64,000 nucleotides of DNA, taken from assembly GCA_050999655.1 (NCBI GenBank), contig JBPCPA010000282.1, positions 1,942 to 65,941 of the forward strand, given 5' to 3'. Below the pieces are notes generated by a model. The model worked only from the letters and a program-made list of their open reading frames with translations, did not search any database and had not been told where the DNA came from. Within the stretch, counting starts at the first letter, position 1, and each line of letters starts with the position of its first letter. The position numbers and the translations under genes are program-made. Below are positions 8,154 through 61,822 of this stretch, one piece after another. The stretch comes from Jatrophihabitans sp. GTDB lineage: Bacteria > Actinomycetota > Actinomycetes > Mycobacteriales > Jatrophihabitantaceae.

Positions 8154-9124
8154 GCTTCAGCGATCTTGCGCTCGGCCAGCTTGTCGAACCGCTCACGCCT
8201 GGGCCAGCGGACATCGGTGGCCCAGCCGAACTTCTCCAGCAGCCAGATCGTCCGGGCCGAGATGTCGAGCTGGCCGCGATCGACCCCGTGCCGGGCGCAG
8301 GTCGGGTCGGCGTGGTGGCTGTTGTGCCACGACTCACCCATGCTCAGGATCGCCAGCGGCCAGAAGTTGGCGGACTTGTCACGCGAGGCGTAGGGCCGCT
8401 CGCCGATCAGGTGACAGACCGAGTTGATCGACCAGGTCACGTGGTGCAGGACGCACAGCCGGACCAGTGAGGCCCAGAAGAACGCGGTCAGCGCCCCAAC
8501 CCAGGACCAGCTGATCAGGCCACCGAGGACGGCCGGCGCGAGCAGGGTGAACGCGACCCAGAGCGGGAACTGCCGATCGATCCTGACCAGGTCCCGGTCG
8601 GCGAGCAGATCCGGTGCGTACTTTTCCTGGTTGGTATGTTCCGGGTCGAACAGCCAGCCGAGGTGGGCGAACCAGAATCCCTTGGTGAGGCCGGCCAGCG
8701 ACTCGCCGAAACGCCAGGGCGAATGCGGGTCACCCTCCCGGTCGGAGAAGGCGTGGTGCCGGCGGTGGTCGGCTACCCAGCGGATCACCGGGCCCTCGAT
8801 CGCCAGCGAGCCCGCGATCGCCAGCGCGATCTTCAGACCTCGGTTGGCCTTGAAGGCACCGTGGGTGAAGTAACGGTGAAAGCCGACCGTGATGCCCAAT
8901 GCCGAGACCACGTAGAACGCCAGCGAGATGGCCAGGTCGGTCCAGCCGATGCCCCAGCCCCAGGCGAACGGGACAGCGGCCAGCACCGCAAGAAAGGGCA
9001 CCACCACGAAGAGGTAGAGCGCCGCCTGCTCACCGCGCGCCTTGCGGCCCGAAATCATTGGCTTTCCGGTCGGCTGGGCCGCACGCAGCGCTTGCGCCGT
9101 GTCCGGCTCGTCGATCATCGTCAC
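8132..9124 (-). CDS. acyl-CoA (delta-9) fatty acid desaturase
   Basis: His boxes GFHRYFTH, DHRRHH and WHNSHH, with TM helices. Confidence 0.94.
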   Translation of the reverse strand: MTMIDEPDTAQALRAAQPTGKPMISGRKARGEQAALYLFVVVPFLAVLAAVPFAWGWGIGWTDLAISLAFYVVSALGITVGFHRYFTHGAFKANRGLKIALAIAGSLAIEGPVIRWVADHRRHHAFSDREGDPHSPWRFGESLAGLTKGFWFAHLGWLFDPEHTNQEKYAPDLLADRDLVRIDRQFPLWVAFTLLAPAVLGGLISWSWVGALTAFFWASLVRLCVLHHVTWSINSVCHLIGERPYASRDKSANFWPLAILSMGESWHNSHHADPTCARHGVDRGQLDISARTIWLLEKFGWATDVRWPRRERFDKLAERKIAEAQVTAAR

Positions 9125-9190
9125 GAATGATTCCTCCAGTTCAGCGGGGTTGCCGAGGGCTTCGCGGCCGGGACGATGCCCGGTCGGCCT

Positions 9191-9225
9191 TACCTACGGA
9201 AGCGTAACCTACGCAACCGTAGGTT
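9191..9225. promoter_or_regulatory. tandem palindromic operator upstream of the desaturase
   Basis: Perfect IR AACCTACG-CAAC-CGTAGGTT (9206-9225), overlapped by an imperfect copy TACCTACG-GAAG-CGTAACCT (9191-9210). Confidence 0.6.
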
Positions 9226-9313
9226 CGAAGCTGACCGGGCCATATTCACAGTGAGTAAGCTGTCGCGGTCGGATGCCTGGACGATCGACTGTCTGGGGCT
9301 TGTCCGGTTTCAG

Positions 9314-9389
9314 TGGGAGATGGGGTAATCGGCAGCCCGCCGGCCTTTGGAGCCGTGCAGTCTCGGTTCGAGTCCGAGTCTCCCAGCCA
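9314..9389 (+). tRNA. tRNA-Gln (anticodon TTG)
   Basis: Acceptor stem TGGGAGA/TCTCCCA, D-arm GGGT/GCCC, anticodon loop CTTTGGA, T-loop GGTTCGAGTCC, encoded CCA end. Confidence 0.96.
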
Positions 9390-9418
9390 GCGCACCCGGT
9401 GCGGCCAGGTGGCCGGTG

Positions 9419-9895
9419 CTACTCACCCGTGCGTCCGTCCAGTAGTTCCCGGGTGGCATCGGCGTGGCCGGCATGCCGGGCGGTCTCGTTGATCAGGTGC
9501 AGCAGTACCCACCGCAGGTCGACGCCGGCCTCGGTCAGGCACGGCTGCGTCAGCGGGATGGAGACAACGGTGGCCTCGGTGGCCGCCGCGCGGGCACGGT
9601 AGGCGGTGATCGCCGCCGACACGGTGAGTTCGACGCCCGGGTTGAACTCGGCCTCGGTGCGGCTGACGTGGTGGCCGAGAAAGCCGCCGTCGATCCAGCG
9701 CCATTCGACGTGGGTCAGGTGATTGACCACCCCGAGCAGGCAGATGAGCCGCCCGTCAGGACGCCATCGAGCCTGCTCATCGGTCAGGTCCGCGAGATTG
9801 CGCAGGACCGCGCCTCGAAGGTAGGCCAACCAGCGCAGCAGCAGCTCGCGCTCGTCGGAGGTTCCGCCTGGAAACTCGATAACAGTGGGCGGCAT
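9419..9895 (-). CDS. DinB/DUF664 family protein
   Basis: ERELLLRWLAYLR, GVVNHLTHVEWRW and LHLINETARHAGHADATRELLDGRTGE, with the DinB His triad. Confidence 0.9.
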   Translation of the reverse strand: MPPTVIEFPGGTSDERELLLRWLAYLRGAVLRNLADLTDEQARWRPDGRLICLLGVVNHLTHVEWRWIDGGFLGHHVSRTEAEFNPGVELTVSAAITAYRARAAATEATVVSIPLTQPCLTEAGVDLRWVLLHLINETARHAGHADATRELLDGRTGE

Positions 9896-9908
9896 GGAAG
9901 GAAGGCTA

Positions 9909-10205
9909 CTAATGAGCCCGAGTTCTTTCTACTCGTTCGACCAAAGCAAGGAGCCAGGCGCGATAGGTCAGCCCATCTGCTTCGGGCCGGTAGTTTCCCT
10001 CAAACTTGTCGACCAGTTCCATCAGGTTCCTTTCGGAAGGTGCATCGCCAAGCAACGCCTCTACCTCGCCGGCCAATCTTGGCGCATCTTCTGGTTCTGA
10101 TAGCGCAAAGTCGTCTGCGGCTACCCAGACGTCAGCGTAATCGTCAGTCCAATCCTGGTGGAGATAACAACTGATAAACTGCGCGAGAGCCTCGGGTTCG
10201 GTCAT
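9909..10205 (-). CDS. CdiI-type toxin immunity protein
   Basis: 98-aa acidic protein (LAQFISCYLHQDW..DY...W). Its ATG overlaps the toxin TGA (ATGA at 10202-10205). Confidence 0.75.
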   Translation of the reverse strand: MTEPEALAQFISCYLHQDWTDDYADVWVAADDFALSEPEDAPRLAGEVEALLGDAPSERNLMELVDKFEGNYRPEADGLTYRAWLLALVERVERTRAH

Positions 10206-11512
10206 GGCTGTGGGTAGGCGGTATGAATCCGATAGCCCGCCGAGGTTGGATGATCTCTTCGAAGGATGACCTTCAGTCCGGACACGTGCATCAATTCCTC
10301 TCCATCTCTCGGTATCGAAACTCCAACTGGTTCGAAAAACTTGCCCGACAGACCAATGCCGCCCTTTGATCCCGTCAGCCAATTGGCAATAATATCGTCG
10401 TGCCTGGCAATGATCTCGCTGATCGAGTTTTCCGCCATCGCCCGACTGCTGAACGCCGAGGCGTGACTTATATGGGGCTCCGTCCGAAGTCGCTCCAGCA
10501 GTACCTGTGTAGGAATCTCTATGTGCTTTCGAATGGTATGTCCCATGGCTGCATCTCCAGTTATAGATTCGTGGGCGGCGAGGCCACCGCCGGGGACGAG
10601 GCGAACGCTGCGCTCGTTCTCGGTGAGCGCTTCGATACTCTTCGCGGCCCGGGCACCGGTCTCGCCCTCGCGGAGCAACCTGCCGCCGGGCAGCGCGGCC
10701 ATGGCATCCAGGCCCAGCGCACCGAGGCCGACGCCCGGATCATGTCGCCCGGCCCGCACCGCGTCGGTGGCCAACTGCGCCGCAGACATCACCGCGGCCG
10801 CCGCGAAGCAGGCCGCCGCTGCCGGTGGGCAGACCACCAGCAGCACCAGGCCGGCGATCGCCAGGTGGTTGCCGAGGTTGCCCAGCGCGTGTGACAGGCC
10901 GGCCAGACCGGAATGGTCCAGCAGCGGCGTGACCGGCGACAGCTCCGACAGCACCCGCACTAGGCCGTGGCCGAACGATGACCAGCCGGACCGATCGCGC
11001 CACACCGAACCGGCCTGTCCCAGCGCGTGCACACATCTGCGCAGCCCGGCGTCCCACTCCTGCCAGGCCTGGTCGAAGTCGCGGGCCAGCACGGCCAACC
11101 GCTCGTCCCTGTCGGCATCGCCGGCAGATCCCGGCAACTGCCCGGCCGCCGGTGCGCACCCTTCCCGTAGCTGGGCATGCAGTCTCAGCAACTGGGGCTG
11201 CACCCGATCCAGCACCCCGGCGTAGCCGATGAGCGCAACGGCGTACTGCTCGTAGCGTCCGGCCACCCGTCCCAGGTCCGGCGCCCGATCCGACATGGCG
11301 ACGACGAACGCGCGCTGGCCGGCACCGGACCAGTCCATCGCCTCCTGATAACCCGACAGCGCCCGAGACGTCCGGCGCAACTCCTCGGCCAGCCCGCCAG
11401 AACGCCGAGCGGCGGCCCGCAACCAGGCCGGATCGCCCGAGGGCAGCCGTCGCGCCAGGCACCGCTGCGCCGCGATCAGACCCACCTCGCCCACACCCGA
11501 CATGGCAGGCAA
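10202..11512 (-). CDS. polymorphic toxin: WXG100-like/T7SS N-terminus plus C-terminal bacterial RNase A-like (CdiA-CT type) domain
   Basis: N-terminal helical region with DWSGAG (WxG). C-terminus GGGLAAHE...GHTIRKH...SAF...GYRIHTAYP. Confidence 0.78.
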   Translation of the reverse strand: MPAMSGVGEVGLIAAQRCLARRLPSGDPAWLRAAARRSGGLAEELRRTSRALSGYQEAMDWSGAGQRAFVVAMSDRAPDLGRVAGRYEQYAVALIGYAGVLDRVQPQLLRLHAQLREGCAPAAGQLPGSAGDADRDERLAVLARDFDQAWQEWDAGLRRCVHALGQAGSVWRDRSGWSSFGHGLVRVLSELSPVTPLLDHSGLAGLSHALGNLGNHLAIAGLVLLVVCPPAAAACFAAAAVMSAAQLATDAVRAGRHDPGVGLGALGLDAMAALPGGRLLREGETGARAAKSIEALTENERSVRLVPGGGLAAHESITGDAAMGHTIRKHIEIPTQVLLERLRTEPHISHASAFSSRAMAENSISEIIARHDDIIANWLTGSKGGIGLSGKFFEPVGVSIPRDGEELMHVSGLKVILRRDHPTSAGYRIHTAYPQP

Positions 11513-34139: not shown

Positions 34140-34853
34140 TCAGCTGAGATGCAGCAGGGCCGCCGCGGCGCCGTCTCCCACGCCCGGATCGGGATTGCCG
34201 GCCACGTCGTTGGCCCGGGCGGCTGCCTCGCACATCTGGCCCACCCGGTTGCGCAACTGCGCGAGCACCTCGGCATCATGGGTCTCCAGGTACTGGGCCA
34301 GCAACGGCCCCACCTCCGCGCCGGTGTTGTAGACGGCAGCGGCCGCCGCAAGCTGGGACTCGTTTGCCAGGTTCTGAAAGGCTTGAACGTCTTCCATGAA
34401 CGTGGGGTAGACGTTGGCGACCGCCTGCACGTCGTCCTCGTCCTCCTCGCCGTTGAACGCCTCCACCGCGCGCGCGATCTCGGCGGCGATGCTGTTGAAC
34501 CGGGCGGCGAAGCTCAGCCGAGCCTCGCGCCGCTCCTCCGCGCTCGGACCGTCCCCGGTGGCGCCCTCGAACAACTGCTCGCGTACCTTGCGCTCGAACA
34601 CCGCGCGCAACGCGTCATCGCTGAGAGCGGCGAGCCGATGCGGGTCGTTCTCGGGTAGCGACCAGATCCAGGCGAAGAACGCGTCCTCGCCGGCGTCGGC
34701 GAGATACTGCCTGGTTGCCGGCAGGAACTGAGCCGGGCCGGCAAGGTGGACGTCCATCGCGGCCTGGTCCGGTGCGTCCAGGTATCCACGCACCTCCCGT
34801 TGCAGGTCTGCGGGCAGGCGACTCAGTAAGTCGTCGGCGTTCTGTGGCTGCAT
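34140..34853 (-). CDS. hypothetical acidic alpha-helical protein
   Basis: Strong SD (AGGAGG) before ATG at 34853. No recognisable family. Confidence 0.65.
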   Translation of the reverse strand: MQPQNADDLLSRLPADLQREVRGYLDAPDQAAMDVHLAGPAQFLPATRQYLADAGEDAFFAWIWSLPENDPHRLAALSDDALRAVFERKVREQLFEGATGDGPSAEERREARLSFAARFNSIAAEIARAVEAFNGEEDEDDVQAVANVYPTFMEDVQAFQNLANESQLAAAAAVYNTGAEVGPLLAQYLETHDAEVLAQLRNRVGQMCEAAARANDVAGNPDPGVGDGAAAALLHLS

Positions 34854-35182
34854 ATGTCCTCCTAGTAGGGCTGTGGGGACATTCTGGGCGGGCGCCTTCA
34901 CCGGCGACCATGACCGGACGGGCCCCCGAAACGGGCAGTGGTGGTTGCCTCAAGGTGCAGGAGCAGCCAGCACGAACTGTTGCCGGCAGGATCAGCACAC
35001 TCACCCGGCCGGCAGCGGCCAGCGCAGTGCGAGCACCGCGGATGGTGAGCAATGCGGCGGTGATCTCGGTCCGCGGCCGGTGTTACGGTGCGGACATCGG
35101 TGCTGTAACCGCGAAGAAGCATCGCCGAAGGCAGCCCGGAGCCTCGCCGATACCGACGGACGTCCGATTGCGGGGTGATGAT

Positions 35183-36208
35183 GTGGCGTACCTGCGACTG
35201 ATCGACACGCACGAGGCGGACGGCGACCTTCTGGCCGCATATCAGGCGATGGCCGCTCGTCCGATGCCGTCGGTGTACCAGCCAGAGCACGGTGGCGCGC
35301 CTGGGATCATCCGAGCGCATTCCCTCGACCCCGAGTTGCTGCGACGTACCTTCGCTGTTTCGGGCTCGCTGAGCAACGACCTGCTTGCCTGGCAATCCCG
35401 AGAACTGATCAATGCCGTGACCTCGCGGGAGAACGAGTGCTTCTATTGAACGACCGCTCACGCGGAGTTTCTGCGTGTAGCAAGCGGCGATGAGACCGTT
35501 AGCCGCAACATCGTCCTGGGGCAGACCTCTGATCAGCTCTCACCTCAGGATGCCGGCCTGGTGGATTTCGCCCGATCGTTGACGGCTCGCCCCTGGACGA
35601 TCGGACCTGCCGATATTCAGCGGCTGTCCGCAGTGGGGTTGTCCCGCGAATCGATCGTCCTCGTCATCGGCCTGGTCGCCATGTTCAACTACCTCACCCG
35701 GGTAGCCGACGGCACCGGGATCGAGGCAGATTACGGAGCCGTCCTTCCGCGGTTCGTCTATCGCGGCGTCACCGAGTCGGCCGGGCGACCTGAGCCGGCA
35801 CAGTGGCCGCCAGTCGGGGACTCCCTCGAACTCCTCACGCTGTTGCCTGGCGTGCATGAGGCGTGGTGTCGCTGGCGCGACTACGTAGTAGACGGCCTCG
35901 GCCAGTTGTCACCGGCAACCCGGCTCCAGCTTCGGACGATAGCGGCCAGAAATGCCTGCGACAGTGTCCTCGGACTGGTTGATACGGCCGATCCGGCGCG
36001 GACCGAGCCGTGCGCCCTGGCAGACTTCGCGGGAAAGCTGAGCCGGACACCGTGGCTCACGACCTCGTCGGACGTCGACACGCTGCGTTCGATGGGCATG
36101 AACGATCTTTCCATCCTTCACGCCATCGCCGTCGTCGCCTATCAGTCGGCTGAATCGCGTCTACGCATTGGACTGTCTGCCCTCAGCAGTTCCGGAATCT
36201 CAACCTAG
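35183..36208 (+). CDS. AhpD/carboxymuconolactone decarboxylase-like peroxidase, probable selenoprotein (TGA 35447-35449 = Sec89)
   Basis: Two track ORFs (ending 35449 and starting 35561) are in one frame with 37 sense codons between them. Read-through gives SRENECFY-U-TTAH, the AhpD SxxNxCxYCxxxH motif. Confidence 0.72.
35454..35487 (+). promoter_or_regulatory. bacterial SECIS-like hairpin
   Basis: CCGCT-CACGCGGA-GTT-TCTGCGTG-(TAGCA)-AGCGG. The apical loop starts with GU, 17 nt after the TGA. Confidence 0.6.
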
Positions 36209-36452
36209 GTAACGACCGGGCAGGCGAAGGTGACGGCTGCGCCGCTTAGGGAATGGCCGCCACGCCGGGCGCGCTCTTGGCTGCCACCGGCAACCCACCA
36301 GAGTGGCTAGCCTGCCCATTGCCACCCGATCGATACTCGACGTTGTTGGCAAATGCCACAGACGCGCGGCTTCCTCAGTTCGAGATCGGCATGCTCTTTC
36401 GCAATTACCGTCGACCCCCTACGCTACGTGCCAGCGGCCGGGAGGACACATC

Positions 36453-37067
36453 ATGACCGAACCCTTCGTCGAAGACGTCCCGCCAGAATCGCTGCCAGAG
36501 CCGACGCATCAAGGATCCGATGATGTGCTCGGTGAGTGGACGTCTGACAGCGATCTGCCTGATGGCGGAAGCGAAAATGTCCAAGCGATCGAGTTCTCCG
36601 CGATGGGCAGCTCTGCAGGCTCGGCTGCTGTGGCCAATGCCCGGACGCAGGCGGGCGTATCCGAGCAACCCCCTGGGTCGAACTGCGGGGTACCGCACGA
36701 CCGCTACGTCGTCTGGATCGCCGGGGCCGGAGTGGGGTGTGTGCCGTGGTGTGCCTACTTCGTCGGCTGGGCGTTCGACACGAGTTCGCTCGGGAATCAC
36801 GATCATCGCTCCCCTTGGGGCAATTCTGGATATGTTCCATGGATCTACCAGTGGGCCCGCAATCACAACAAGATCGTGTCGAGGCCCGAGCACGGTGACG
36901 TTTTCTTCCTCAACCCGACCGATCCGCAGCATTCGCACATGGGTCTCGTCGCTGGCGCCGACCCCGTGGCCGGCACCATATATACCTGCGAGGGAAACTG
37001 GAGCGATCGAGTGCTGAGCCAAGTGCGGGCGTACCGGTCAGGTGTCTACACGTTTGCCCGAATCTGA
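36453..37067 (+). CDS. CHAP-domain (NlpC/P60-like) peptidoglycan hydrolase with acidic N-terminus
   Basis: PWCAYFVGW (Cys), GDVFF, SHMGLV (His) and EGN motifs. GGAGG SD before ATG at 36453. Confidence 0.8.
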   Translation: MTEPFVEDVPPESLPEPTHQGSDDVLGEWTSDSDLPDGGSENVQAIEFSAMGSSAGSAAVANARTQAGVSEQPPGSNCGVPHDRYVVWIAGAGVGCVPWCAYFVGWAFDTSSLGNHDHRSPWGNSGYVPWIYQWARNHNKIVSRPEHGDVFFLNPTDPQHSHMGLVAGADPVAGTIYTCEGNWSDRVLSQVRAYRSGVYTFARI

Positions 37068-37853: not shown

Positions 37854-38252
37854 TCAAAACGAGCAGGCGTTCAGGTGATCGACCATCGAGACGAGATGGT
37901 GCGCCAACAGCAGAGCATCACCCTGAGTAAGTCGGAGCTGGTATGGCTGGAAGCCAGGGTCTGAACCGCACACACTCAACACAATCGAGGGCGTGGTGGA
38001 CTCATGGATGCCTGTTCGCTCCTGACCGAAGCGAAAGGGCTGCGCCACAAAGAGTTCCAGTGTCGAGACCCCGGACGATCCCACGCAGTCCACATGCTGA
38101 CTTCGCGAACGGCACTCGTCGTGGGGCAGGTGGATCTCCGCATCCGGGTAGCCGTCGTTGGCATTGGGGTGACCGCGGCCGTTGACGCACCAGGCCGCGC
38201 CATGGTCGTAGAGCCGACTGAGGTCGGCAGCGTCCGGCCAGGGTTTCGTCAT
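37854..38252 (-). CDS. phage/integrative-element hypothetical protein
   Basis: Coupled (ATGA) to the upstream HTH gene. The P.WC...H...H pattern is typical of small actinophage/AICE genes. Confidence 0.6.
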   Translation of the reverse strand: MTKPWPDAADLSRLYDHGAAWCVNGRGHPNANDGYPDAEIHLPHDECRSRSQHVDCVGSSGVSTLELFVAQPFRFGQERTGIHESTTPSIVLSVCGSDPGFQPYQLRLTQGDALLLAHHLVSMVDHLNACSF

Positions 38253-38509
38253 TGCTGATTCTTCTTAGCTGCGAGGCGATCGATGGCGGCCTGCTCGACT
38301 CGGGTGTCAGCAGCGAACAGCGTGGCCACCGGGCAGCCGAGCGCGCGAGTAATCGCAACCGCGGTGGTGAGCGAGCAGGAGACGCGGCGACCGGTCATCA
38401 GGTGATTCACCGTCGAGTGGCTGAGGTTGGCGCGGCGAGAGAGTTCGCGCTCGGAGATCCCGAGTTCTTCGATCAGCGAAACGAAGATGAGGCGGTTACG
38501 CAGTTGCAT
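38249..38509 (-). CDS. XRE/Cro-like HTH protein
   Basis: LGISERELSRRANLSHSTVNHLMTGRR..CS...A.AI..ALG HTH. Confidence 0.85.
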   Translation of the reverse strand: MQLRNRLIFVSLIEELGISERELSRRANLSHSTVNHLMTGRRVSCSLTTAVAITRALGCPVATLFAADTRVEQAAIDRLAAKKNQQ

Positions 38510-41176: not shown

Positions 41177-41301
41177 ATACCCAGGCTAGCCCGGTATCTG
41201 GTTATCCGCACATCCGTACGGACTTGCATATCGGCGCGAATCGGCGTACACCAGAACGTGAACATCCGCAAAGCCGTACGGATGTCGAGGAAGGCATAGC
41301 G

Positions 41302-42639
41302 ATGACAATTTTTGGTGGGGCGTGGCACGGCCTGGATGAGGCGTTCTTCATGTTCTGGGAGACGCTGTGGGCGTTGGTGTTGGGCTTTGGCCTGTCCGGA
41401 GCGGTGCAGGCATTCGTGTCACGCGGGGAGATGCGTAAGGCTCTCGGTAACCACCGGCCGGCGACGCTGGGTAAGGCCAGCTTCTTCGGAGTGATCAGCT
41501 CCTCGTGCTCCTACGCGTCCTCGGCGCTGGCCAAGTCACTGTTCGCGCGAGGGGCGGACTTCACCGCCTCGATGGTGTTCATGATCGCTTCGACCAACCT
41601 GGTCGTAGAGCTCGGGATCGTGCCGTGGTTGCTGATTGGTTGGCAGTTCGCGTTGGCCGAGTTCGTCGGCGGCGCGATCATGATCGTCCTGCTCGGCCTG
41701 GTCCTGCCGCGCCTGATCCCCGAAGCCTGGATTAGCGAGGCCCGCGACCGGCTCAACGCGAACGAGGCCGCGACCGGCAGCGAAGCGGCGACGGACCCGC
41801 ACGCCGGGCACGGGCAGATTCAGGACGACGGCGAGCCGCATGAGGCCGAACCGCTGCGCCAGCGGCTACGGTCACGCCGTGGCTGGGGCGATGCATCGGG
41901 CTACACGATCAGTGACCTCACCATGCTGCGCAAGGAACTGGTGATCGGCTTCGTGGTCGCCGGTTACCTGGCCGCTCTCGTACCGACCGGGTTCTGGCGT
42001 TCGCTGTTCCTTACCGGGCACGGCTTCTGGTCCTCCCTGGAGAACGTCATCCTCGGCCCGTTCCTGGCCATTATCAGCTTCGTCTGCTCGGTCGGCAACG
42101 TCCCCCTCGCCGCAGCCCTGTGGCAGGGCGGGATCAGCTTCGGCGGTGTCGTGTCCTTCGTCTTCGCCGACCTGATCACGCTGCCGCTGCTCTCGATCTA
42201 CCGCAAATACTTCGGCACGCAGATCACGCTGCGGATCCTCGTCATCTTCTGGGCCACCATGAGCAGCGCCGGCCTCGCCGTCGAATACCTCTTCAAACTC
42301 GCCCGAATCCCCGAGCCATCCCGGCCGACAATGATCATCCGCACCGGCTTCCAGTGGAACTACACCACCATCCTCAACCTGCTCGCCCTCGCCGTATTCG
42401 CTGTCATCTACTGGCTCTACCGCCACCGGGACACGACGGACAGCCGGTACGCGAAGGACCCCGTCTGCGGGATGCAGGTCGAAACCGCGGACGCCCCCGC
42501 CAGCCGCCAAACGCACGACGGGCCGGTGTACTTTTGCTCCGATCACTGCGCTCACCGCTATGACAGCGACCCCGCACGCCGCCCAGCCAGCGCGCAGCCA
42601 AGCCCAGATGACGGCAACTTTCGGCAAGGAGGCCTCTGA
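41302..42639 (+). CDS. DUF318-type permease with C-terminal YHS/TRASH metal-binding domain
   Basis: SSSCSYAS, ASTNLVVELG and FVCSVGNVPLAA motifs. C-terminal DPVCGM...YFCSDHC. Confidence 0.88.
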   Translation: MTIFGGAWHGLDEAFFMFWETLWALVLGFGLSGAVQAFVSRGEMRKALGNHRPATLGKASFFGVISSSCSYASSALAKSLFARGADFTASMVFMIASTNLVVELGIVPWLLIGWQFALAEFVGGAIMIVLLGLVLPRLIPEAWISEARDRLNANEAATGSEAATDPHAGHGQIQDDGEPHEAEPLRQRLRSRRGWGDASGYTISDLTMLRKELVIGFVVAGYLAALVPTGFWRSLFLTGHGFWSSLENVILGPFLAIISFVCSVGNVPLAAALWQGGISFGGVVSFVFADLITLPLLSIYRKYFGTQITLRILVIFWATMSSAGLAVEYLFKLARIPEPSRPTMIIRTGFQWNYTTILNLLALAVFAVIYWLYRHRDTTDSRYAKDPVCGMQVETADAPASRQTHDGPVYFCSDHCAHRYDSDPARRPASAQPSPDDGNFRQGGL

Positions 42640-44245: not shown

Positions 44246-45289
44246 GTGACCACGACTCTTTCGGCTCGTCATCAGGACGCGGCAATGCTTCCGTTTTTGA
44301 GCGGAGTAACTCAAGCAAAGCGGACGATCGTGGTCGCGGGTCGTAGCTTCGAGGTCACCCCGGTGTTTGACACCTACTGGCGATTCGCAGCAGCTCGCCA
44401 GCACATTTATGAGGCTCGACAGGCTGGGCGTCCCGGGCCGTGGACCAACGATCCGATTCTTCGGCTGCACCGGTTCACCAACTGCTTCCGCGCGGCCGAT
44501 CGCGTCAGTCAGTTCCTCATTGGTGAGGTCGCCTATCGTGGATCACAGGAGCCGGAAGAAGTCGTCTTCCGGACGCTGTTATTTAAGCTCTTTAACAAGG
44601 TGTCTACCTGGCGTCTGCTCCAACAGCACATCGGAGAGCTGACTTGGCACGGAGCAGACCTCGTGGCCTACGATGCCGTGCTTACGCAGGCATTCGCCGA
44701 GGGCCGCCGACTTTACTCGGCTGCCTACGTAATTCCTCCGCCGCAGCTTGGTGGGGAGCGGAAGCACTCTAATCACCTGCATCTTTTGCGCCTCCTGATG
44801 GAAGACCGGGTACACGAGCGATTGGCTGCAGCGCCAAGCATGGCGCACGCATTCGAGGTGCTGAGGAGCTACCCGGCAATCGGGGACTTTCTGGCCTACC
44901 AGTTCCTCATCGACATCAACTACAGCGGGGCATTGGCCTTCGATGAAGGCGAGTTCGTCGTACCCGGCCCCGGCGCGCGCGACGGCATCCGCAAGTGCTT
45001 CGGTGCCGCCGCGTCCGGATTTGAGGCTGAGGTAATCCGCTACATGGCCGACAGCCAAGAAGAACACTTCGATCGGCTGGGCTTAGAGTTCCACGGCCTT
45101 CGGGGCCGTCGCTTGCAGCTTATAGACTGTCAGAATCTCTTCTGCGAGGTAGACAAGTACGCCCGTGTCGCCCACCCCGATGTCCAGGGCATCTCCGGTC
45201 GGACCCGGATCAAGCAGAAGTATGCACCCGACGCAGCACCGTTGACGGCTTGGTTTCCGCCAAAATGGAATCTAAACGCCGCGTCCTGA
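44246..45289 (+). CDS. 5-hmdU DNA kinase helical-domain / aGPT-pyrophosphorylase family protein (standalone)
   Basis: YWRFAAARQHIY..R..G...PWTNDPIL...RFTNCFRAADRVSQ, RTLLFKLFNK, IGDFLAYQ...D.NYS, GPGARDG and DCQNLFCEVDKY.RV motifs. Confidence 0.82.
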   Translation: MTTTLSARHQDAAMLPFLSGVTQAKRTIVVAGRSFEVTPVFDTYWRFAAARQHIYEARQAGRPGPWTNDPILRLHRFTNCFRAADRVSQFLIGEVAYRGSQEPEEVVFRTLLFKLFNKVSTWRLLQQHIGELTWHGADLVAYDAVLTQAFAEGRRLYSAAYVIPPPQLGGERKHSNHLHLLRLLMEDRVHERLAAAPSMAHAFEVLRSYPAIGDFLAYQFLIDINYSGALAFDEGEFVVPGPGARDGIRKCFGAAASGFEAEVIRYMADSQEEHFDRLGLEFHGLRGRRLQLIDCQNLFCEVDKYARVAHPDVQGISGRTRIKQKYAPDAAPLTAWFPPKWNLNAAS

Positions 45290-45297
45290 CCGACTGA

Positions 45298-46251
45298 TCA
45301 GGTGGCGTTCATCGCCTCGTACTGCTCGACGGTGTACGGGATGAGCGTCCGGTTATGCAGATCCGCGACTAGGACACCGCTGCGATGTTCTATGAGGAAT
45401 CTGAAGGCGTTGTACCCGGCCAAGATGGCGTGCTGCCAGTCGGGAATGCTGCGACTCTTTACCTCGAGATGAGCCGTTGCGCGCCTGCACGACTTCAGGA
45501 GGTCTCGTGGTACGCGAGTAGTGGTCTTGAAGAACGAGTAGTCGGCTGCCTCGGCGAACACAGACGCCGTGAGGCCTTCTTCGATCACGACTGCTCTAGC
45601 GCCGTCCTCGACCCGGTCGAGCCGTTCAACGCTCTTCCGCTTGCACTTCGGGTCGAGGATTGCCCTAATCACCGGCGACCAGCCGAGGACTGCCATGTGG
45701 CCCAGGTGCAGCGCGTCGTGGTAGCGATAGAAATCATCGATGTCGCTGTTGTCATCGATTGGGTCGCCCATCCGGCGGAAGGTCGTCTCACCGTTTAGTA
45801 CCGTCAGGGTCACGACGCCAATTTCTCGACCGTCGCGGATCTCGGTGTGTTCGTTGAAGCGCACGACAAGCTGACGCGGCAACTGCTCATGTGGTTCCAT
45901 ATCTTCGTCGAAGAGATCGTGCGGACGCGGTGGCTCATTGGACAGGAATTCACCGGCAGCTTTGTCCAGGTTTGCTTGGGCAATTTCGCCGAGGGTCAGT
46001 CCGACTCGCGACGCCAGTGCGGCCATGTACCACAACGCATCGCCTAATTCCTCCTGCACGGACTCGCCGAATGCCCTGTAGCCTGTTGAGTCACGGTTGC
46101 GCTTCTTCCACTCTGCTGCGAGTTCGCCGACCTCACCTACAATGCCGAACAGTGGAAGCACCAAATCGCTAGCCGACCCATCTTTTGGCAGGATATCGGT
46201 AGCGAGTGCCCGTCGTTGGTATTCGTCCAGAGACAGTTCAGTAGTACTCAT
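45298..46251 (-). CDS. MazG-like nucleotide pyrophosphohydrolase with C-terminal MazG_C domain
   Basis: GEVGE and EELGDALWY metal motifs. C-terminus GDPIDDN...YRYHDALHLGHMAVLGWSPVIRA...KRKS...VEDGARAVVIEE. Confidence 0.88.
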   Translation of the reverse strand: MSTTELSLDEYQRRALATDILPKDGSASDLVLPLFGIVGEVGELAAEWKKRNRDSTGYRAFGESVQEELGDALWYMAALASRVGLTLGEIAQANLDKAAGEFLSNEPPRPHDLFDEDMEPHEQLPRQLVVRFNEHTEIRDGREIGVVTLTVLNGETTFRRMGDPIDDNSDIDDFYRYHDALHLGHMAVLGWSPVIRAILDPKCKRKSVERLDRVEDGARAVVIEEGLTASVFAEAADYSFFKTTTRVPRDLLKSCRRATAHLEVKSRSIPDWQHAILAGYNAFRFLIEHRSGVLVADLHNRTLIPYTVEQYEAMNAT

Positions 46252-46949
46252 ATCAAGATCCTCGCTGCTTGTGCGCCGAAGTTGATCAAATATTCTACCG
46301 GGAGAAGCCCATAGCCGCCTGCCCCCCAGAATTCACCCCATGAGTTACGGATCAGAAACACCCGGCCATGCGTGAGATCGGTCCACGCCCCTGTGACGAC
46401 CACAGCGTGATAGCCCTCGGCGGGGGCCGTGATGGGTGGAACTGTTACGTAGCCGTCCAGATCGGGCGTGCGAAAGTTGGCGCTTATCTCGATCACTAGC
46501 ACCACTGGATGGCCGTCCGCGAGTTCGTGCTCAACTGCGTCTTCCACGCCATCGTGCGCTATGACGACAGGCGAAAGGTTGGCGCGGGTCCAAGGCGGAA
46601 TACCGGCGGATGCAGGCGGTGGCTCAGACTCGAACCCGAGGCTGTCGTTGTAGGGCCACAGATCAGCGTCGCAATGGCCGGTGTGCGGCAGCGCGTGGCC
46701 TGCTGAGCCTAGGGTCGTACCGTCGTGTCCGGCCAAGCCCCACTCACGAAGGCGCCACCAGATGGGCTCGATCGCGGCCTCGAATCCAGAGCGTTCGGCC
46801 TCATGAGCAGCAGCCAGAGCACAGGCAACGCACGTCGGTCGCGGGCCTTGATCCATGACGTCGCTTGAGATCTGCGACGTCAGGTCGACCGCAGGGCGCC
46901 CAGCGGCGGACTCACGGAGTTTCTTAAGCCGCTCAGCAGCGGTGGTCAC
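46248..46949 (-). CDS. papain-like (C1) cysteine peptidase
   Basis: DQGPRPTCVACA (Gln/Cys), YHAVVVTG (His) and IRNSWGEFWGAGGYG (Asn). No signal peptide. Confidence 0.9.
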   Translation of the reverse strand: MTTAAERLKKLRESAAGRPAVDLTSQISSDVMDQGPRPTCVACALAAAHEAERSGFEAAIEPIWWRLREWGLAGHDGTTLGSAGHALPHTGHCDADLWPYNDSLGFESEPPPASAGIPPWTRANLSPVVIAHDGVEDAVEHELADGHPVVLVIEISANFRTPDLDGYVTVPPITAPAEGYHAVVVTGAWTDLTHGRVFLIRNSWGEFWGAGGYGLLPVEYLINFGAQAARILI

Positions 46950-48229
46950 GCGACATCGACCTCGAACTCGGCGTCGTCATCAGGGTCGCCTGGCAACCGC
47001 CGGTCTAGGTCACTCTCTAGCTGTCGCCGCCGGAACGCAGTATTCGGAGTTGGCTGGACCGCCAACTGCAGCTCGTAGGTGAAAAGCGGTTCGTCCCGTG
47101 GGTCGTAGGCGTGAGCGTAAAAGAGTTGGAGTTGCCACCCACCGGGCCTGACGGTACGCACGATGACCGTACGAACGCCGTTGCCGCCGATCGGTGGGCC
47201 ATCGGCGATCTCCATGGCTGGGCCACCTTGGCGGGCACGGATTCTGCGTCGACGTTGCCGTTGGATCTTGGTCTGCGGCTCGTCGCCAGCGGTAAACGAA
47301 TCCTCGACCACGGTGGCCGGCGCGGCATCCTCGTCCGCGTCAGAATCGTCAGGGGCGGAATCGAGGGTTCGAATTTGTCCCAGGGCGGCGAGTGTGTAGT
47401 CCGTCGCCGAGAATTGGTCCCGCCGTCGAAGGCTACCGTCGATGACGGGGACTTCCGGCGGTGCAATTGGACGGGACCGAGGCCTCCATGATCCGCCATT
47501 GCGTTGGGCCAGCTCATCCTCCGTCTGCCAGCGCCAGCCAGCGAGACGTTGCTCGACCAGGTCCACCATGACCTCGTCGTGCTCCTCGACGACGAGGCTG
47601 ACGAGCTCATCGTTGCTCGTCGCGTCCCACATGTCAGCTAGCCCGTTTTCCGGGCGGTGGTTGCCGGACGCCCGTCGGAGGGCGGACATCCGACCCAGGT
47701 CCAAAATTCGTTGAAATGCAGCCTGGTTGATGAACCGAGCGGCGAGCAGTCGTCGGGCGGTGGCCTCGTAGCTCACACCCAGATCGCGGCTCAATCGGTA
47801 GACGTGCTCCGGTTTGATCTGACCTCGTCGCAATCCGTAGGCTGCGACGGCGTGATTCAACAACGTCGGAGGCATCAGGAAGTAGCCAGCGAATAACTGC
47901 GCCTCGCGCTCCAACTCGCTGGACGGGTGCCCGAGAACCTCAGCTTCGCCGTCCATCCGTAGGTGGTCCGCGTGTAGAACCCAGTGACCAATCTCGTGCG
48001 CTGCTGTATATCGCTGGATCGCAGAGCTCCGCTGTGACGTAATCAGGACCCCGCCATTCCCGTCAGGAACGACTGCGCCGAGCAGGTTGTCCAAGTTAGT
48101 GATATGCAGAGCTAGGCCGAGTCGGTCGATTGCCGCGAAGGGATCGATTACATATCTTTGATCGATGCCGAGGAGTTCGAGGGTCTCATCTGCGGCAACT
48201 AAGGCGTCGGCGCGCCCCGAGACGGTCAC
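46946..48229 (-). CDS. ImmA/IrrE family Zn metallopeptidase with C-terminal chagasin (I42)-like domain
   Basis: QRYTAAHEIGH, EREAQLFAGYFLMP and LGVSYEATARRL. The C-terminal beta-domain pattern is described under findings. Confidence 0.85.
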   Translation of the reverse strand: MTVSGRADALVAADETLELLGIDQRYVIDPFAAIDRLGLALHITNLDNLLGAVVPDGNGGVLITSQRSSAIQRYTAAHEIGHWVLHADHLRMDGEAEVLGHPSSELEREAQLFAGYFLMPPTLLNHAVAAYGLRRGQIKPEHVYRLSRDLGVSYEATARRLLAARFINQAAFQRILDLGRMSALRRASGNHRPENGLADMWDATSNDELVSLVVEEHDEVMVDLVEQRLAGWRWQTEDELAQRNGGSWRPRSRPIAPPEVPVIDGSLRRRDQFSATDYTLAALGQIRTLDSAPDDSDADEDAAPATVVEDSFTAGDEPQTKIQRQRRRRIRARQGGPAMEIADGPPIGGNGVRTVIVRTVRPGGWQLQLFYAHAYDPRDEPLFTYELQLAVQPTPNTAFRRRQLESDLDRRLPGDPDDDAEFEVDVA

Positions 48230-57569: not shown

Positions 57570-59709
57570 CCGCTATATCTGGCAGCAGTTGCACTGGCCC
57601 CGTCCGCTGGAGGCGGCGGGGCCAGTGTCGGCTGTGCGCGCCTGGGCCGCTGACCAGCGGTCACCGGAGATTGTGCTGGAGGCGCGGGCTCAGGGTGGCC
57701 AGATCCATTACCTGTTGGGCTGCGCCCCGACGGCGATGTTCAGTATCCACCAGCGGCTGACCACGGCGGTGCCGCAAGCCCGACTCACCAAATTCGGCCA
57801 GCCACGAGCGGCCGTCGCCGTGGCCGGGATGGTCAAGCTCTCCACCCGCCACCGAGCGCTGCGCAGTGACACCTTCGACGTGGCAGTGCGCCAGATCCTC
57901 GGCGCGCTCAGCACCGTCAATAGCGATGAACTGCTGGTACTGCAACTGATTCTCGGTCCGCGCCGCATCCCGCTGGCGGTGCCGAATCAGTCGCCGTCCA
58001 CAGTGGCCATGCCCTGGTACCAGGCCGCCTGGATCGGCAACGGCGGAACTGTCGACGGGGAGAAACGCGCCGCGCTTCGGGACAAGGTCAGTGACCACGG
58101 CTTCGCCGCCACTATCCGCATCGGCGTGTCAGCTGCCACCAAGGTCCGGCGACGGAGTCTGCTGCTGGGCCTGTTTGCTGCGCTGCGGGTGACCGAGGCC
58201 CCCGGCTTGAAAGCCCGGCTGGGCCATGAGCCGGCCACCCACCTGAACCTTGCAGCCATCCCGTGGCGCTGGCCGCTGCGCCTGAACGTGGCCGAAGCTG
58301 TGGCTTGGACTGGCTGGCCGATCGGTGACGACGAACTACCGGGTCAACCGCCGCTGCATCCCAAGCAGGTCGCCCCGATGGCCTTGGCTGTCAAGGGGGA
58401 TAGGGTGGTTGGTGAGGCATTGGCTCCTGGCGTGACCGGGCAGCTGGGTTACTCGGTAACGGATTCGCTGCGGCATACCTGGGTGCTCGGGCCGACCGGC
58501 ACCGGCAAGTCCACGCTGTTATTGAACCTGATCCACCAAGATTTGCTGGCTAATCGGCCGGTGGTGGTGATCGAGCCGAACGACCTGATCACCGACCTGC
58601 TGGCCCGCATCCCCGAGTCCCGCAGGGATGATGTGGTGCTGCTGGACTGCCTCGACCCGGCCCCGGTCGGCATCAACCCACTGGCGCGACATGGCCGCAG
58701 TCCGGAGCTGGTGGCCGACTCACTGCTGGGGATGTTCCAGTCCCTCTACGGCGAAGGCATCGGGCCGCGTTCCACCGACATTCTGGCCAACTGCCTGAAC
58801 GTCCTGGCCCGGCGTGATGATGCCTCCCTGGTCATGTTGCCGCTGCTGCTCACCAACAACGGCTTTCGTCGTTCCGTGACTCAACAGGTCAGCCGCGACG
58901 ACCCGATCGCCGCCGGCCCGTTCTGGGCCTGGTTCAACCAGCTGTCCGACGATGCCCGCTCCCAGGTCATCGCACCGCTGCAGAACAAGCTCCGACCCCT
59001 GCTGCGGCCGACGCTGCGCAACGTCCTGGCCCAACGCTCGCCACGGTTCAACATCCGCCAAGTCCTGACCGAGAACAAGGTGCTACTGGTGCCACTGCAG
59101 AAAGGAGTCATCGGGCCGGACACTGCCGAACTGCTCGGTGCGTTGGTGATTGCCGAGCTGTGGCTGGCTATCCGCGAACGCCGCGCTATCTCTGAAAACC
59201 AGCGGACTCCGGTCAGGGTCTACATCGACGAAGCCCAGGACTACCTGCGACTACCCACCGATCTGTCCGATGCTCTCGCGACCTCCCGCTCGCTGAAGGT
59301 CGGCTGGCACCTGGCTCACCAGTACCGCGACCAGCTCAGCCCGAGCATGCGGGCGGCGTTCGAGGCCAACGCCCGCTCCCGGATCTGCTTTCAACTTGGT
59401 AGCGGCGATGCCCGGGCCATGGCCGCCGGGCAAAGCGTGATCGCTCCGGAGGACTTCACGGCACTCCCGGCCTACCAGATCTACGCCAGCCTGCTACAGC
59501 GCGGGAGCGTCCAACCGTGGGCCTCGGCCACCACCCAGCCAGCACCCGAGAAATGCAGCCAACCCAGCGACATCCGGGCTCGCAGCCGCCGCCAGTACGG
59601 CCAACCCCTCGCCGACATCACGGCCGACTTCGCGGCCCTCATCGACACCCCAACTACCGATCCGACCACTAACGCGGCCCCCGGCCGTCGTCGCAGGAGC
59701 ACGCCATGA
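57562..59709 (+). CDS. VirD4/TraD-like coupling ATPase (type IV secretory conjugative DNA transfer family)
   Basis: HTWVLGPTGTGKST (Walker A), YIDEAQDY (Walker B) and WHLAHQYRDQL. Confidence 0.88.
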   Translation: MTSRYIWQQLHWPRPLEAAGPVSAVRAWAADQRSPEIVLEARAQGGQIHYLLGCAPTAMFSIHQRLTTAVPQARLTKFGQPRAAVAVAGMVKLSTRHRALRSDTFDVAVRQILGALSTVNSDELLVLQLILGPRRIPLAVPNQSPSTVAMPWYQAAWIGNGGTVDGEKRAALRDKVSDHGFAATIRIGVSAATKVRRRSLLLGLFAALRVTEAPGLKARLGHEPATHLNLAAIPWRWPLRLNVAEAVAWTGWPIGDDELPGQPPLHPKQVAPMALAVKGDRVVGEALAPGVTGQLGYSVTDSLRHTWVLGPTGTGKSTLLLNLIHQDLLANRPVVVIEPNDLITDLLARIPESRRDDVVLLDCLDPAPVGINPLARHGRSPELVADSLLGMFQSLYGEGIGPRSTDILANCLNVLARRDDASLVMLPLLLTNNGFRRSVTQQVSRDDPIAAGPFWAWFNQLSDDARSQVIAPLQNKLRPLLRPTLRNVLAQRSPRFNIRQVLTENKVLLVPLQKGVIGPDTAELLGALVIAELWLAIRERRAISENQRTPVRVYIDEAQDYLRLPTDLSDALATSRSLKVGWHLAHQYRDQLSPSMRAAFEANARSRICFQLGSGDARAMAAGQSVIAPEDFTALPAYQIYASLLQRGSVQPWASATTQPAPEKCSQPSDIRARSRRQYGQPLADITADFAALIDTPTTDPTTNAAPGRRRRSTP

Positions 59710-60803
59710 CCGAAGCTCACTCTGACCCACACCAGCAAGCCAGGCGGCAAGCAGACCCTGACCGCAGCCGGACCAACCATCCTCATATCCAGCCAGACAG
59801 TTGGCTCAACCCGACCGATCCCAGCCGCTCCGATCGCTGCTCCAGTCGTGTCGACTCACCGACCCCTGTAACCCCCGAATCATCGGCCATCCGGTCGCAA
59901 TTCGCGCCCGAATGTCTCACGCGCAGCGGGAGACATCTACTCGCCGAGGGCCGCCCGCAGCAGGCAGCGAACAAATCAGCCACGAAGCATCGTGGTCCAG
60001 GCCGCAACAGCCAACGCCGCCAGGCCGAACTACTCCAACCCAAACTCACTACCCGCGACCACGCAGTCCTTACCAGCCTGCAAGACCACCACTACCTGAC
60101 TACAACTCAACTACAACGACTTCATTTTGACGATCACCAAACCACGTCGGCGGCCGGTCGAATCTGCCGCCGGGCGCTGACCCGGCTGGCGGAGCTGGGC
60201 GTCATCGAGCACCTAGAACGGCGGGTCGGCGGTGTCCGGGCCGGCTCCGCCTCCTACGTCTGGCGACTGGGCCGGATCGGGGAAGCGTCGCTGCGACTCA
60301 ACCAACCGCAGCGGCCACGCGGCCGCCATAAAGAACCATCGCTGCACCACTTAGAGCACTGCCTGGCGATCGCAGACAGCCACCTCGCTCTGCTGGACCT
60401 GATGCGGCGGAACCTTGTCGAGTCGGCAACTGTCGTCACCGAACCGACTTGCTGGCGGCGCTACCTGACGCCGAGCGGGGCGATGGCCACCCTGAAGCCG
60501 GACCTGTACGCCATGACGACCAGCGGTGAGTTCGAGGACCACTGGTTCATCGAGGTCGACCGGGGCACCGAGAGTTTGCCGACGCTGCTTACTAAGTGTG
60601 CCCAGTACGAGGACTACCGCCGGACCGGCGACGCCCAACACGACAACGGCGTCTTCCCATTGGTGCTGTGGCTGATGCCCTCCGTACAGCACGCCGAATG
60701 GCTCGGACAGGCCATCGCCAGGGTCAAGAACCTGGACAGCGGCCTGTACCGGATCGGCACCCTGGCCGAACTTGAGCGGATCCTCAGTGAGGTTCAACCA
60801 TGA
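59706..60803 (+). CDS. replication-relaxation (Replic_Relax) family protein
   Basis: wHTH (LTTRDHAVL...LTTTQL...LTRL..LG), H.LAIAD, LKPD and WFIEVDRGTESL...K...Y. Confidence 0.88.
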   Translation: MTEAHSDPHQQARRQADPDRSRTNHPHIQPDSWLNPTDPSRSDRCSSRVDSPTPVTPESSAIRSQFAPECLTRSGRHLLAEGRPQQAANKSATKHRGPGRNSQRRQAELLQPKLTTRDHAVLTSLQDHHYLTTTQLQRLHFDDHQTTSAAGRICRRALTRLAELGVIEHLERRVGGVRAGSASYVWRLGRIGEASLRLNQPQRPRGRHKEPSLHHLEHCLAIADSHLALLDLMRRNLVESATVVTEPTCWRRYLTPSGAMATLKPDLYAMTTSGEFEDHWFIEVDRGTESLPTLLTKCAQYEDYRRTGDAQHDNGVFPLVLWLMPSVQHAEWLGQAIARVKNLDSGLYRIGTLAELERILSEVQP

Positions 60804-61822
60804 CCGCGCTCGATCCAATGATCCGGAACCGAATCGTAGTCGGTGACGCGCTCGAGCAGCTGCGCCAGCTGCCAGACGCTTCCGTCGACATGGTGCTGAC
60901 CAGCCCGCCGTACTTCCGGCTGCGCGACTACGACGTCGCCGGCCAACTCGGCCTGGAATCGCACGTCGAGGAATGGGTCAACAACCTGTTCCTTATCGCG
61001 GCCGAACTACGGCGGGTGCTGCTGCCGACCGGCACCCTGTGGCTGAACCTCGGCGATAGCTACTCCATCCACGCCGATCAAGGCTCGGCCAAGAAGGGCC
61101 TGCTGCTCGGACCAGAACGCCTGACGCTGGCCCTGATCCAAGACGGCTGGCTACTGCGCAACAAGATCGTCTGGCAGAAGGCCAACCCGATGCCGAGCCC
61201 GGTACGTGACCGACTAGCGGCGACTTGGGAGGCGGTCTACGTCTTCACTCGCAACCCGCGCTACTTCTTCGACCTCGACAGCGTCCGCATACCGCACACC
61301 AGCTCGCACAAACCGATCAGACAACGGACTCGTACAGCTCAGCCCTGGCGCAGCAGTAACAGCAACGACACCGACGGTCTGGCACGGCTCAAAGCTCGGG
61401 GACTCGCAGGGCACCCGCTCGGTAAGAACCCCGGCGATGTCTGGCGATTGGCTTCCAGTGGCTACCGCAGTGCCCACCACGCGACTTTCCCAACGTCCTT
61501 GGCCAGCCGGGCACTTCAAGCCGGTGCGCCGGAAGCTCGCTGCAGCCGCTGCCGATCCCCGTGGCAACGCAGCGTGCTCCGCGCGGCCGATGGCAGTGCC
61601 AGCAGGACGGCCCTCGGCCCGACCTGTGGCTGCGACGCTGACCGCGAACCAGCCCTCGTCCTCGACCCATTCTTCGGCGCCGGCACAACCGCGGTGGCCG
61701 CCGAACAGCTCGGCCGCGACTGGCTCGGTATCGAACTGAATCCGGAGTTCGCGCGCCAAGCCGAACAGCGCATCTTGGCCAGCCGTCCTCCCCGTGCCGG
61801 TCCGAAGAATACGGCGGCCTGA
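60800..61822 (+). CDS. beta-class N4-C/N6-A DNA methyltransferase
   Basis: TSPPY precedes HHATFP and DPFFGAGTT. Carries a CxxC...CxC insertion. Confidence 0.92.
   Translation: MTALDPMIRNRIVVGDALEQLRQLPDASVDMVLTSPPYFRLRDYDVAGQLGLESHVEEWVNNLFLIAAELRRVLLPTGTLWLNLGDSYSIHADQGSAKKGLLLGPERLTLALIQDGWLLRNKIVWQKANPMPSPVRDRLAATWEAVYVFTRNPRYFFDLDSVRIPHTSSHKPIRQRTRTAQPWRSSNSNDTDGLARLKARGLAGHPLGKNPGDVWRLASSGYRSAHHATFPTSLASRALQAGAPEARCSRCRSPWQRSVLRAADGSASRTALGPTCGCDADREPALVLDPFFGAGTTAVAAEQLGRDWLGIELNPEFARQAEQRILASRPPRAGPKNTAA

Follow-up and report, generated by a model that had tools for sequence, protein, structure and literature searches.

A two-domain AhpD-like gene from a Jatrophihabitans metagenome contig reads as a selenoprotein gene with a SECIS hairpin in its catalytic-helix codons

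The 64,000-nucleotide stretch of Jatrophihabitans sp. DNA analysed here (contig JBPCPA010000282.1 of assembly GCA_050999655.1, positions 1,942 to 65,941; hereafter the window, to which all positions refer) is a contig from a sediment metagenome. On its forward strand, positions 35183-36208 form one reading frame with a sole internal stop, a TGA at 35447-35449. The codon lies within ...SRENECFY*TTAHAEFLRV, exactly at the second cysteine of the AhpD motif, and the frame stays open for 252 codons 3′ of it, both as reported in a preliminary description of the window. A hairpin of the type of a bacterial selenocysteine insertion sequence (SECIS) follows the TGA. We are highly confident that 35183-36208 is a genuine selenoprotein gene of the AhpD-like family (TIGR01926/COG2128, with a CxxU motif in which U is selenocysteine, Sec), encoding 341 residues. 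The features of the gene, including the two artefactual open reading frames (ORFs) into which it is broken, are as follows.

35183-36208, forward strand: the complete gene, read as a selenoprotein gene, with a GTG start, 341 codons, Sec as codon 89 and a TAG stop at 36206-36208
35447-35449, forward strand: UGA read as selenocysteine (U89), at the site of the second Cys in the AhpD-type CxxC motif
35402-35461, forward strand: catalytic helix-turn-helix motif, with E74 at 35402-35404, C86 at 35438-35440, Y88 at 35444-35446, U89, and H93 at 35459-35461
35270-35752, forward strand: N-terminal AhpD-like (peroxid_rel) domain, residues ~30-190, catalytically complete as judged from its sequence
35765-36205, forward strand: C-terminal, degenerate second AhpD-like domain, residues 195-341, without the CxxC and without the His, but with a conserved lone Cys259
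35456-35481, forward strand: bacterial SECIS hairpin within the coding sequence, assigned from its fold, conservation, synonymous constraint and the bacterial SECIS (bSECIS) model
35459-35466 and 35470-35477, forward strand: upper stem of 8 bp, CACGCGGA paired with UCUGCGUG
35467-35469, forward strand: apical loop, GUU
35456-35458 and 35479-35481, forward strand: lower stem of 3 bp, with one bulged U at 35478
34715-35449, forward strand: artefactual stop-to-stop ORF, of which only 35183-35446 is real coding sequence, homologs beginning at GTG 35183
35561-36208, forward strand: artefactual truncated ORF of 215 aa, which is P0001 in the protein search and the form in which the gene stands in protein databases

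Standard ORF calling splits the gene, as the preliminary description had stated: the mechanical ORF list gives 34715-35449 and 35561-36208. In alignments its N-terminus coincides with residue 1 (MAW...) of homologous proteins, which supports GTG 35183 as the start. Searching for proteins similar to the read-through sequence gave 125 relatives, and of the best 120 about 115 are only 190-247 aa long and start shortly after the TGA position; the truncated database homologs cover only 50-71% of the read-through query. An exact look-up of the 215-aa ORF in public assemblies gave no entry. This truncation reads as the signature of gene callers that stop at the Sec codon. Two close full-length database homologs, P0048 and P0083 (both JGI gene calls), have a W at the Sec site. 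The DNA of P0083 (L078, 515-1561) has TGA there, and its W results from gene calling under genetic code 4, so that a selenoprotein passes for an ordinary protein. A scan of the rest of the window for in-frame TGA codons flanked on either side by coding signal turned up gene boundaries only and no second selenoprotein candidate. A promoter and terminator scan also found nothing.

The TGA is conserved across a wide range of bacteria. A genome scan with peptide patterns taken from the C-terminal domain, and therefore blind to Sec or Cys at the TGA site, found 74 homologous loci in Actinomycetota and Myxococcota, down to ~40% protein identity. The hosts are Jatrophihabitans, Pseudonocardiaceae (Actinophytocola, Labedaea), Streptosporangiaceae, Frankiaceae and Micromonosporaceae among the Actinomycetota, and Polyangium, Minicystis and Byssovorax among the myxobacteria. 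One of them, L003, lies on the complete MAG (metagenome-assembled genome) chromosome OY969101.1 and encodes a protein with 72% identity. TGA occupies the aligned codon in 73 of the 74 loci, within the motif C-[FLM]-Y-U-T. The sole locus without it, L070 of Actinophytocola glycyrrhizae (10001-10609), is a 5′-truncated remnant covering residues ~134-330, from which the CxxU part is gone. No close homolog has TGC or TGT at this site, and the distant ones have Cys. Among distant full-length homologs, P0117 reads CSYC and P0107 has TGC (DNA in L077), and the CxxC of the structures with PDB codes 6k40, 3c1l, 2oyo, 2pfx and 2prr aligns onto C86/U89. The combination of TGA and hairpin is shared by 73 genome loci and at least 120 metagenome contigs, which puts the feature far beyond chance. 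Compared with the seven closest relatives, the ratio of nonsynonymous to synonymous substitution rates (dN/dS) lies at 0.11-0.24 before the TGA and at 0.19-0.37 after it, with dS of 0.5-1.2, so that both parts are under purifying selection. The downstream values indicate that the 252 codons after the TGA are translated in this frame. As a separate observation, the frame at L073 is shifted near 10252 by one inserted base (GTC-A-GCC) immediately 3′ of the hairpin; either this copy is a pseudogene, or the long-read MAG contains an indel error.

The hairpin at 35456-35481 is placed with exactly 17 nt between the A of the UGA and the loop G. It has a minimum free energy (MFE) of -14.2 kcal/mol, with z = -3.75 against dinucleotide shuffles, 1 of 200 of which folds as well; the fold of the 81-nt context alone is not significant (z = -1.48). 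The bSECIS model specifies a loop of 3-9 nt that starts with G followed by G or U, a stem of 4-16 bp, a spacing of 16-37 nt and an MFE of at most -7.5 kcal/mol (PMC13188914). With its GUU loop, 8-bp stem, 17-nt spacing and -14.2 to -15.7 kcal/mol, the hairpin agrees with every constraint of that model (PMC13188914). The claim that a hairpin with a GU-starting loop stands 17 nt after the TGA is thus confirmed by folding as well as by its fit to the bSECIS model.

Codon choice in the hairpin is unusually restricted. In a codon alignment of 66 distinct full-length genes, the normalised synonymous-codon entropy at conserved residues is 0.20 for codons 90-99 compared to 0.61 elsewhere (Mann-Whitney p = 4e-6, 66 genes), and in a sliding-window profile along the gene the entropy is lowest at codons 92-99, exactly the stem. 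TTT is used in the stem by 64 of the 66 genes, compared to 10% elsewhere, and CGT by 65 of 66, compared to 9% elsewhere; these rare codons are fixed, in GC-rich genes, where the U must pair with A. The codon for Ala94 is GCA or GCG only, both of which pair with U, and never GCC, which dominates elsewhere. In L077, the only Cys-form gene with readable DNA, the corresponding codons are TAC, TTC and CGC, both A-U pairs are lost and the region folds differently. Judged from these codons, the hairpin is under selection at the RNA level beyond what the protein requires, and the constraint is relaxed in the Cys form L077. Across the 66 sequences, 92% of alignment cells are paired, the upper stem at ~100%. 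Compatible changes on one side of the stem include C-G to U-G six times and exchange between A-U and G-U 23 times, and it is on conservation together with such one-sided changes, not on covariation, that the proposed structure is based. The Tyr codon before the UGA (35444-35446) shows a bias of its own, with TAT in 63 of 66 genes, the proportions elsewhere being 21% TAT and 79% TAC, a hint that the sequence 5′ of the Sec codon is under selection too.

The machinery for Sec insertion was searched for by tblastn with E. coli SelA, SelB and SelD and by ARAGORN over the window and all loci, and selB and tRNA-Sec were found at one locus only, L019 of Actinophytocola xinjiangensis. The ortholog of the window gene starts there at 10001. 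Immediately before it, divergently oriented on the other strand, are tRNA-Sec (9850-9944) and selB (8116-9837; 281 bits with TIGR00475, whose cutoff is 242), the whole arrangement spanning 8116-11020. Neither selA nor selD was found within 10 kb of this locus. In a search for SelB homologs, aimed at genomes like that of Jatrophihabitans, the best 120 matches are all from Pseudonocardiales, plus one from Mycobacterium. SelB is widespread in aerobic Pseudonocardiales. The preliminary description had called a selenoprotein unusual for an aerobic actinomycete. This is overstated, as SelB is common in aerobic Pseudonocardiales and the gene occurs in dozens of actinomycete and myxobacterial genomes. 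SelB also appears to be encoded on two of the contigs with homologous loci, that of L010 (from a MAG) and that of L070 (A. glycyrrhizae). In the case of L070, the apparent presence of SelB (P0131) on the same contig as the truncated remnant may represent loss of the selenoprotein with retention of the machinery. Contigs with tRNA-Sec-like sequences related to the tRNA-Sec of L019 occur in the source metagenomes, at depths that give no assignment to this organism. The sole tRNA gene in the window itself is a tRNA-Gln (TTG) at 9314-9389.

The protein belongs to TIGR01926 ('peroxidase-related enzyme', NCBIfam; COG2128) with 131.4 bits against a cutoff of 81.8, and also matches the Pfam family CMD (25.7 against a cutoff of 23). 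The N-terminal domain contains the best TIGR01926 stretch, residues 33-176, and PDB entries 6k40, 3c1l, 2oyo, 2pfx and 2prr match residues 31-181 with E = 1e-10 to 1e-16. E74, C86, Y88 and H93 are invariant in the 66 genes. The catalytic set of 2PRR, Glu74/Cys86/Tyr88/Cys89/His93, consists of the same residues with the same numbering as in the window protein, with Cys in place of Sec (PMC4674687), and the equivalents in M. tuberculosis AhpD are Glu118/Cys130/His132/Cys133/His137 (PMC3141380). The C-terminal domain matches profile positions 101-173 of TIGR01926 with E = 1.3e-7 and 2oyo with E = 0.001. For the structure we used an AlphaFold2 (AF2) model of the homolog P0048, which is 47% identical to the window protein. 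The model has a mean predicted local distance difference test score (pLDDT) of 86 and a predicted template modelling score (pTM) of 0.85, and is an all-helical AhpD/CMD fold. In Foldseek, 2oyo, 6k40, 3c1l and 2prr match half the length of this model with target-normalised TM-scores (TMt) of ~0.7, and over the full length the best match is human Sestrin2, with a query-normalised score (TMq) of 0.62-0.68. The window protein is read as a single-chain pseudo-dimer of two AhpD folds, an active-site N-domain and a degenerate C-domain, in a sestrin-like arrangement. The fused degenerate second AhpD domain is its distinctive feature. The label 'peroxidase' is a putative one, drawn from the motif and the fold.

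These elements can be combined in a plausible mechanism. The hairpin would bring SelB, loaded with Sec-tRNA(Sec), to the ribosome, and Sec would be inserted at codon 89. The recruiting signal would be written into the H-A-E-F-L-R-V codons of the catalytic helix, and a hairpin in this position accounts for unusual synonymous codons being held fixed there. In the folded protein, the selenolate of Sec89, activated by a proton relay of Glu74, Tyr88 and His93, may attack a hydroperoxide or an oxidised partner thiol. Cys86 would then resolve the selenenic acid to a selenenylsulfide, which a cellular thiol system would re-reduce. The putative activity is that of a peroxidase or a disulfide reductase.

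The preliminary description raised the possibility that the TGA is a sequencing error, and the source gives some ground for it, as the window is a low-coverage metagenome contig with a word depth of ~6 in run X1. The Logan contigs of two separate runs, X1 (35100-35598) and X3 (35303-35551), are nevertheless identical to the window, with 0 differences, and TGA is universal in the homologs. The agreement of two independent assemblies and of the homologs refutes an error of sequencing or assembly at 35447-35449, and we give this explanation practically no weight. The same description also mentioned a nonsense change from TGC to TGA, which would have inactivated an ordinary CxxC AhpD-like gene and turned it into a pseudogene. 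A single-base change suffices for this, the gene borders a mobile region of lower GC, and one relative, L070, is indeed reduced to a truncated remnant. An inactivated gene, however, would not be expected to share its TGA with 73 of 74 loci in two phyla, to lack any close homolog with TGC or TGT, or to keep 252 downstream codons open and under purifying selection. The conservation of the TGA and the selection downstream of it refute the nonsense change, and a pseudogene is extremely unlikely.

If the UGA were a true stop, the locus would encode an N-terminal peptide of 88 residues and a re-initiated C-terminal protein of ~215-250 residues. Database gene callers annotate it in this way throughout, and in-frame GTG, ATG and TTG codons are available downstream. 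On the other hand, such a stop would cut the catalytic CxxC-xxx-H helix mid-way, and it leaves the hairpin and the adjacency to selB/selC unexplained. Between the TGA and the earliest codon at which translation could resume (TTAHAEFLRVASG...), the protein sequence in this frame is conserved. The sites of a potential restart show no such conservation, and the N-termini in the databases spread over ~50 codons. We consider termination at this codon very improbable. It is also conceivable that the codon is read through without selenium, by near-cognate insertion of Trp or Cys or with Cys on tRNA-Sec, so that this host makes a full-length protein that is not a selenoprotein. The absence of Sec genes from the window, a metagenome contig, and the database calls with W at the site speak for this, although the latter are a code-4 artefact. 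Against it stand the conserved SECIS-type hairpin with its GU loop and correct spacing, which is a specific signal for SelB, and the relaxation of the hairpin constraint in the Cys form. Furthermore, TGA ends 18 of 29 confident ORFs and is thereby the commonest ordinary stop in the window, which speaks against any reassignment of the codon. Read-through of this kind seems improbable to us, with a small probability left to it.

Several results weigh against a selenoprotein gene with a SECIS hairpin. In the covariation test on 73 hairpins the helix varied too little to reveal compensation: the only double change lies in the weak lower stem, and shuffle controls were not exceeded. The invariant peptide HAEFLR by itself dictates some of the nucleotide conservation, and an Rfam search over 35000-36400 gave only chance matches and no family. 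selA, selB, selD and tRNA-Sec are absent from the 64-kb window, which is a metagenome contig. Clustering of the ORFs within +/-5 kb of the 74 loci revealed no conserved partner (the largest cluster comprises 9 loci) and no pointer to a pathway such as ahpC or a reductase. A selenoprotein gene is nonetheless our strongly preferred reading, and the core of the preliminary description, an AhpD-like CxxU selenoprotein gene with a SECIS element that ORF calling splits, is supported by the conservation of the TGA, the Sec/Cys pairing, the fit to the bSECIS model, the synonymous constraint, the purifying selection, and selB and tRNA-Sec at L019.

The AhpD-like selenoprotein family (COG2128/TIGR01926, CxxU) has been listed since the Sargasso Sea study of 2005, and few selenoprotein families are as abundant in marine metagenomes (PMC1088965, PMC2398784, PMC13188914). 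The window protein is a two-domain, publicly mis-annotated member of this known family and not a new kind of system. With the members described as 'AhpD-like 1' from the Sargasso Sea and Global Ocean Sampling (GOS) data it shares a CxxU motif in which Sec takes the place of the second Cys, and a SECIS immediately 3′ of the UGA. The TGA and hairpin sequence is exactly the same in the window gene and in single-domain metagenome members. It differs in its fused degenerate second domain, its length of 341 aa with ~250 codons after the UGA, and its carriers, which are soil Actinomycetota and Myxococcota in contrast to the marine plankton of the known family. A scan for the exact pattern of TGA and hairpin found at least 120 metagenome contigs, and 94 of those listed have a complete downstream ORF. 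Among these 94, about 64 have ~95-128 codons after the UGA (about 113) and represent the single-domain form, C[HE]Y-U-T[QE]SHAEFLRV (L079-L158), while 28 have 240-282 codons and represent the two-domain form of the window gene.

Several related families share features with the window protein. NF041238 (AhpD_rel_CFYUT, 'hypothetical protein 1' of the Sargasso Sea) has the same C-F-Y-U-T motif and an AhpD-type domain, but its Sec domain is C-terminal and that of the window protein N-terminal. Membership was rejected: the score of 71.9 bits falls well short of the cutoff of 175, and the alignment is confined to positions 220-337 of a profile of 357. The N-domain aligns over ~150 residues, with the same catalytic set, to the hexameric single-domain AhpD-like proteins (2PRR, 2OYO, the D. 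radiodurans AhpD 6K40, and 3C1L). Those structures have Cys instead of Sec and one-domain chains that pair non-covalently, whereas the window protein carries its partner as a fused domain from which the motif has gone. In Sestrin2, two AhpD folds, the N-terminal one active and the C-terminal one degenerate, are arranged pseudo-symmetrically (PMC4674687), and the likeness to human Sestrin2 and other sestrins lies in having two AhpD folds in one chain, a resemblance of architecture and not membership. Of the two motif cysteines, sestrin retains just the first (Cys125), with Leu at the position of Sec in the window protein, and no leucine or GATOR2 function is implied. Weak matches to PA26, the sestrin family of Pfam (PF04636), occur on the window protein and many homologs, but membership was rejected at 15.5 bits against a gathering threshold of 29.4. 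M. tuberculosis AhpD, which re-reduces AhpC, has the CxxC-xxx-H motif and the Glu/His proton relay in common with the window protein (PMC3141380), and by analogy this suggests a similar thiol/selenol redox cycle; its motif is in a different part of the chain. Canonical AhpD, the partner of AhpC, was likewise rejected as a family (TIGR00778, 19.8 against a cutoff of 27.8; no linkage to ahpC), and a gene for ahpC or a lipoamide system is linked in none of the 74 loci.

The two-domain form may constitute a clade of AhpD selenoproteins, single-chain and sestrin-like, that has escaped recognition. It appears restricted to Actinomycetota and Myxococcota of soil, with probable exchange between the two, and would have arisen by duplication and fusion of the widespread single-domain form, with the identical UGA-SECIS module retained. 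We advance this only tentatively and with some doubt. Should it be true, this clade would be the closest prokaryotic architectural counterpart of the sestrins, with Sec where sestrins lost the second Cys. More immediately, public records carry genes of the window type as a truncated 'hypothetical protein' or 'YciW', and the window gene and more than 100 relatives are stored either as such fragments or with W at the Sec site. Their recognition adds a selenoprotein to aerobic soil actinomycetes and myxobacteria. Cultured carriers include Actinophytocola xinjiangensis (CGMCC 4.4663), A. algeriensis, Labedaea rhizosphaerae (DSM 45361), Minicystis rosea (DSM 24000) and Polyangium sp., and the presence of the family in cultured strains makes the biochemical role of AhpD-like selenoproteins directly testable. 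A SECIS in the codons of a catalytic helix is, in addition, a clean example of overlapping protein and RNA constraint. Selenoprotein biology is not changed in kind by these findings.

Upstream of the gene lie an M1 aminopeptidase, an SRPBCC protein and an unassigned ORF of 253 aa. Downstream, the GC content falls to 0.58-0.66 (36300-64000), compared to 0.67-0.73 upstream; the gene, with a GC content of 0.64, sits at the border. The next 28 kb contain mobile and accessory genes, with products that include a CHAP protein, an XRE-type helix-turn-helix (HTH) protein, an IrrE-like peptidase, an ArsP permease, a 5-hydroxymethyldeoxyuridine (5-hmdU) DNA kinase, MazG_C, Replic_Relax and a DNA methylase. 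The main ones are located as follows, with the reverse strand marked.

36303-37067: CHAP
38249-38509, reverse strand: XRE HTH
41224-42639: ArsP permease with YHS
46946-48229, reverse strand: IrrE/M78 peptidase
59706-60803: Replic_Relax
60800-61822: N6/N4 DNA methylase

The region 36300-64000 is probably an integrated conjugative or mobilisable element. The placement of the gene on an accessory island, as first described, is uncertain; the gene sits at the edge of this lower-GC mobile region. When the seven neighbouring window ORFs were compared with the homologous loci, none was in common except for one stray match. With no neighbours common to any homologous locus, the gene looks like a free-standing, mobile single gene. 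Within the downstream region, at 44246-46251, the 5-hmdU DNA kinase (PF18723, E = 5e-113) adjoins a MazG + MazG_C protein on the opposite strand. A pair of 5-hmdU kinase and MazG is typical of phage thymidine hypermodification systems.

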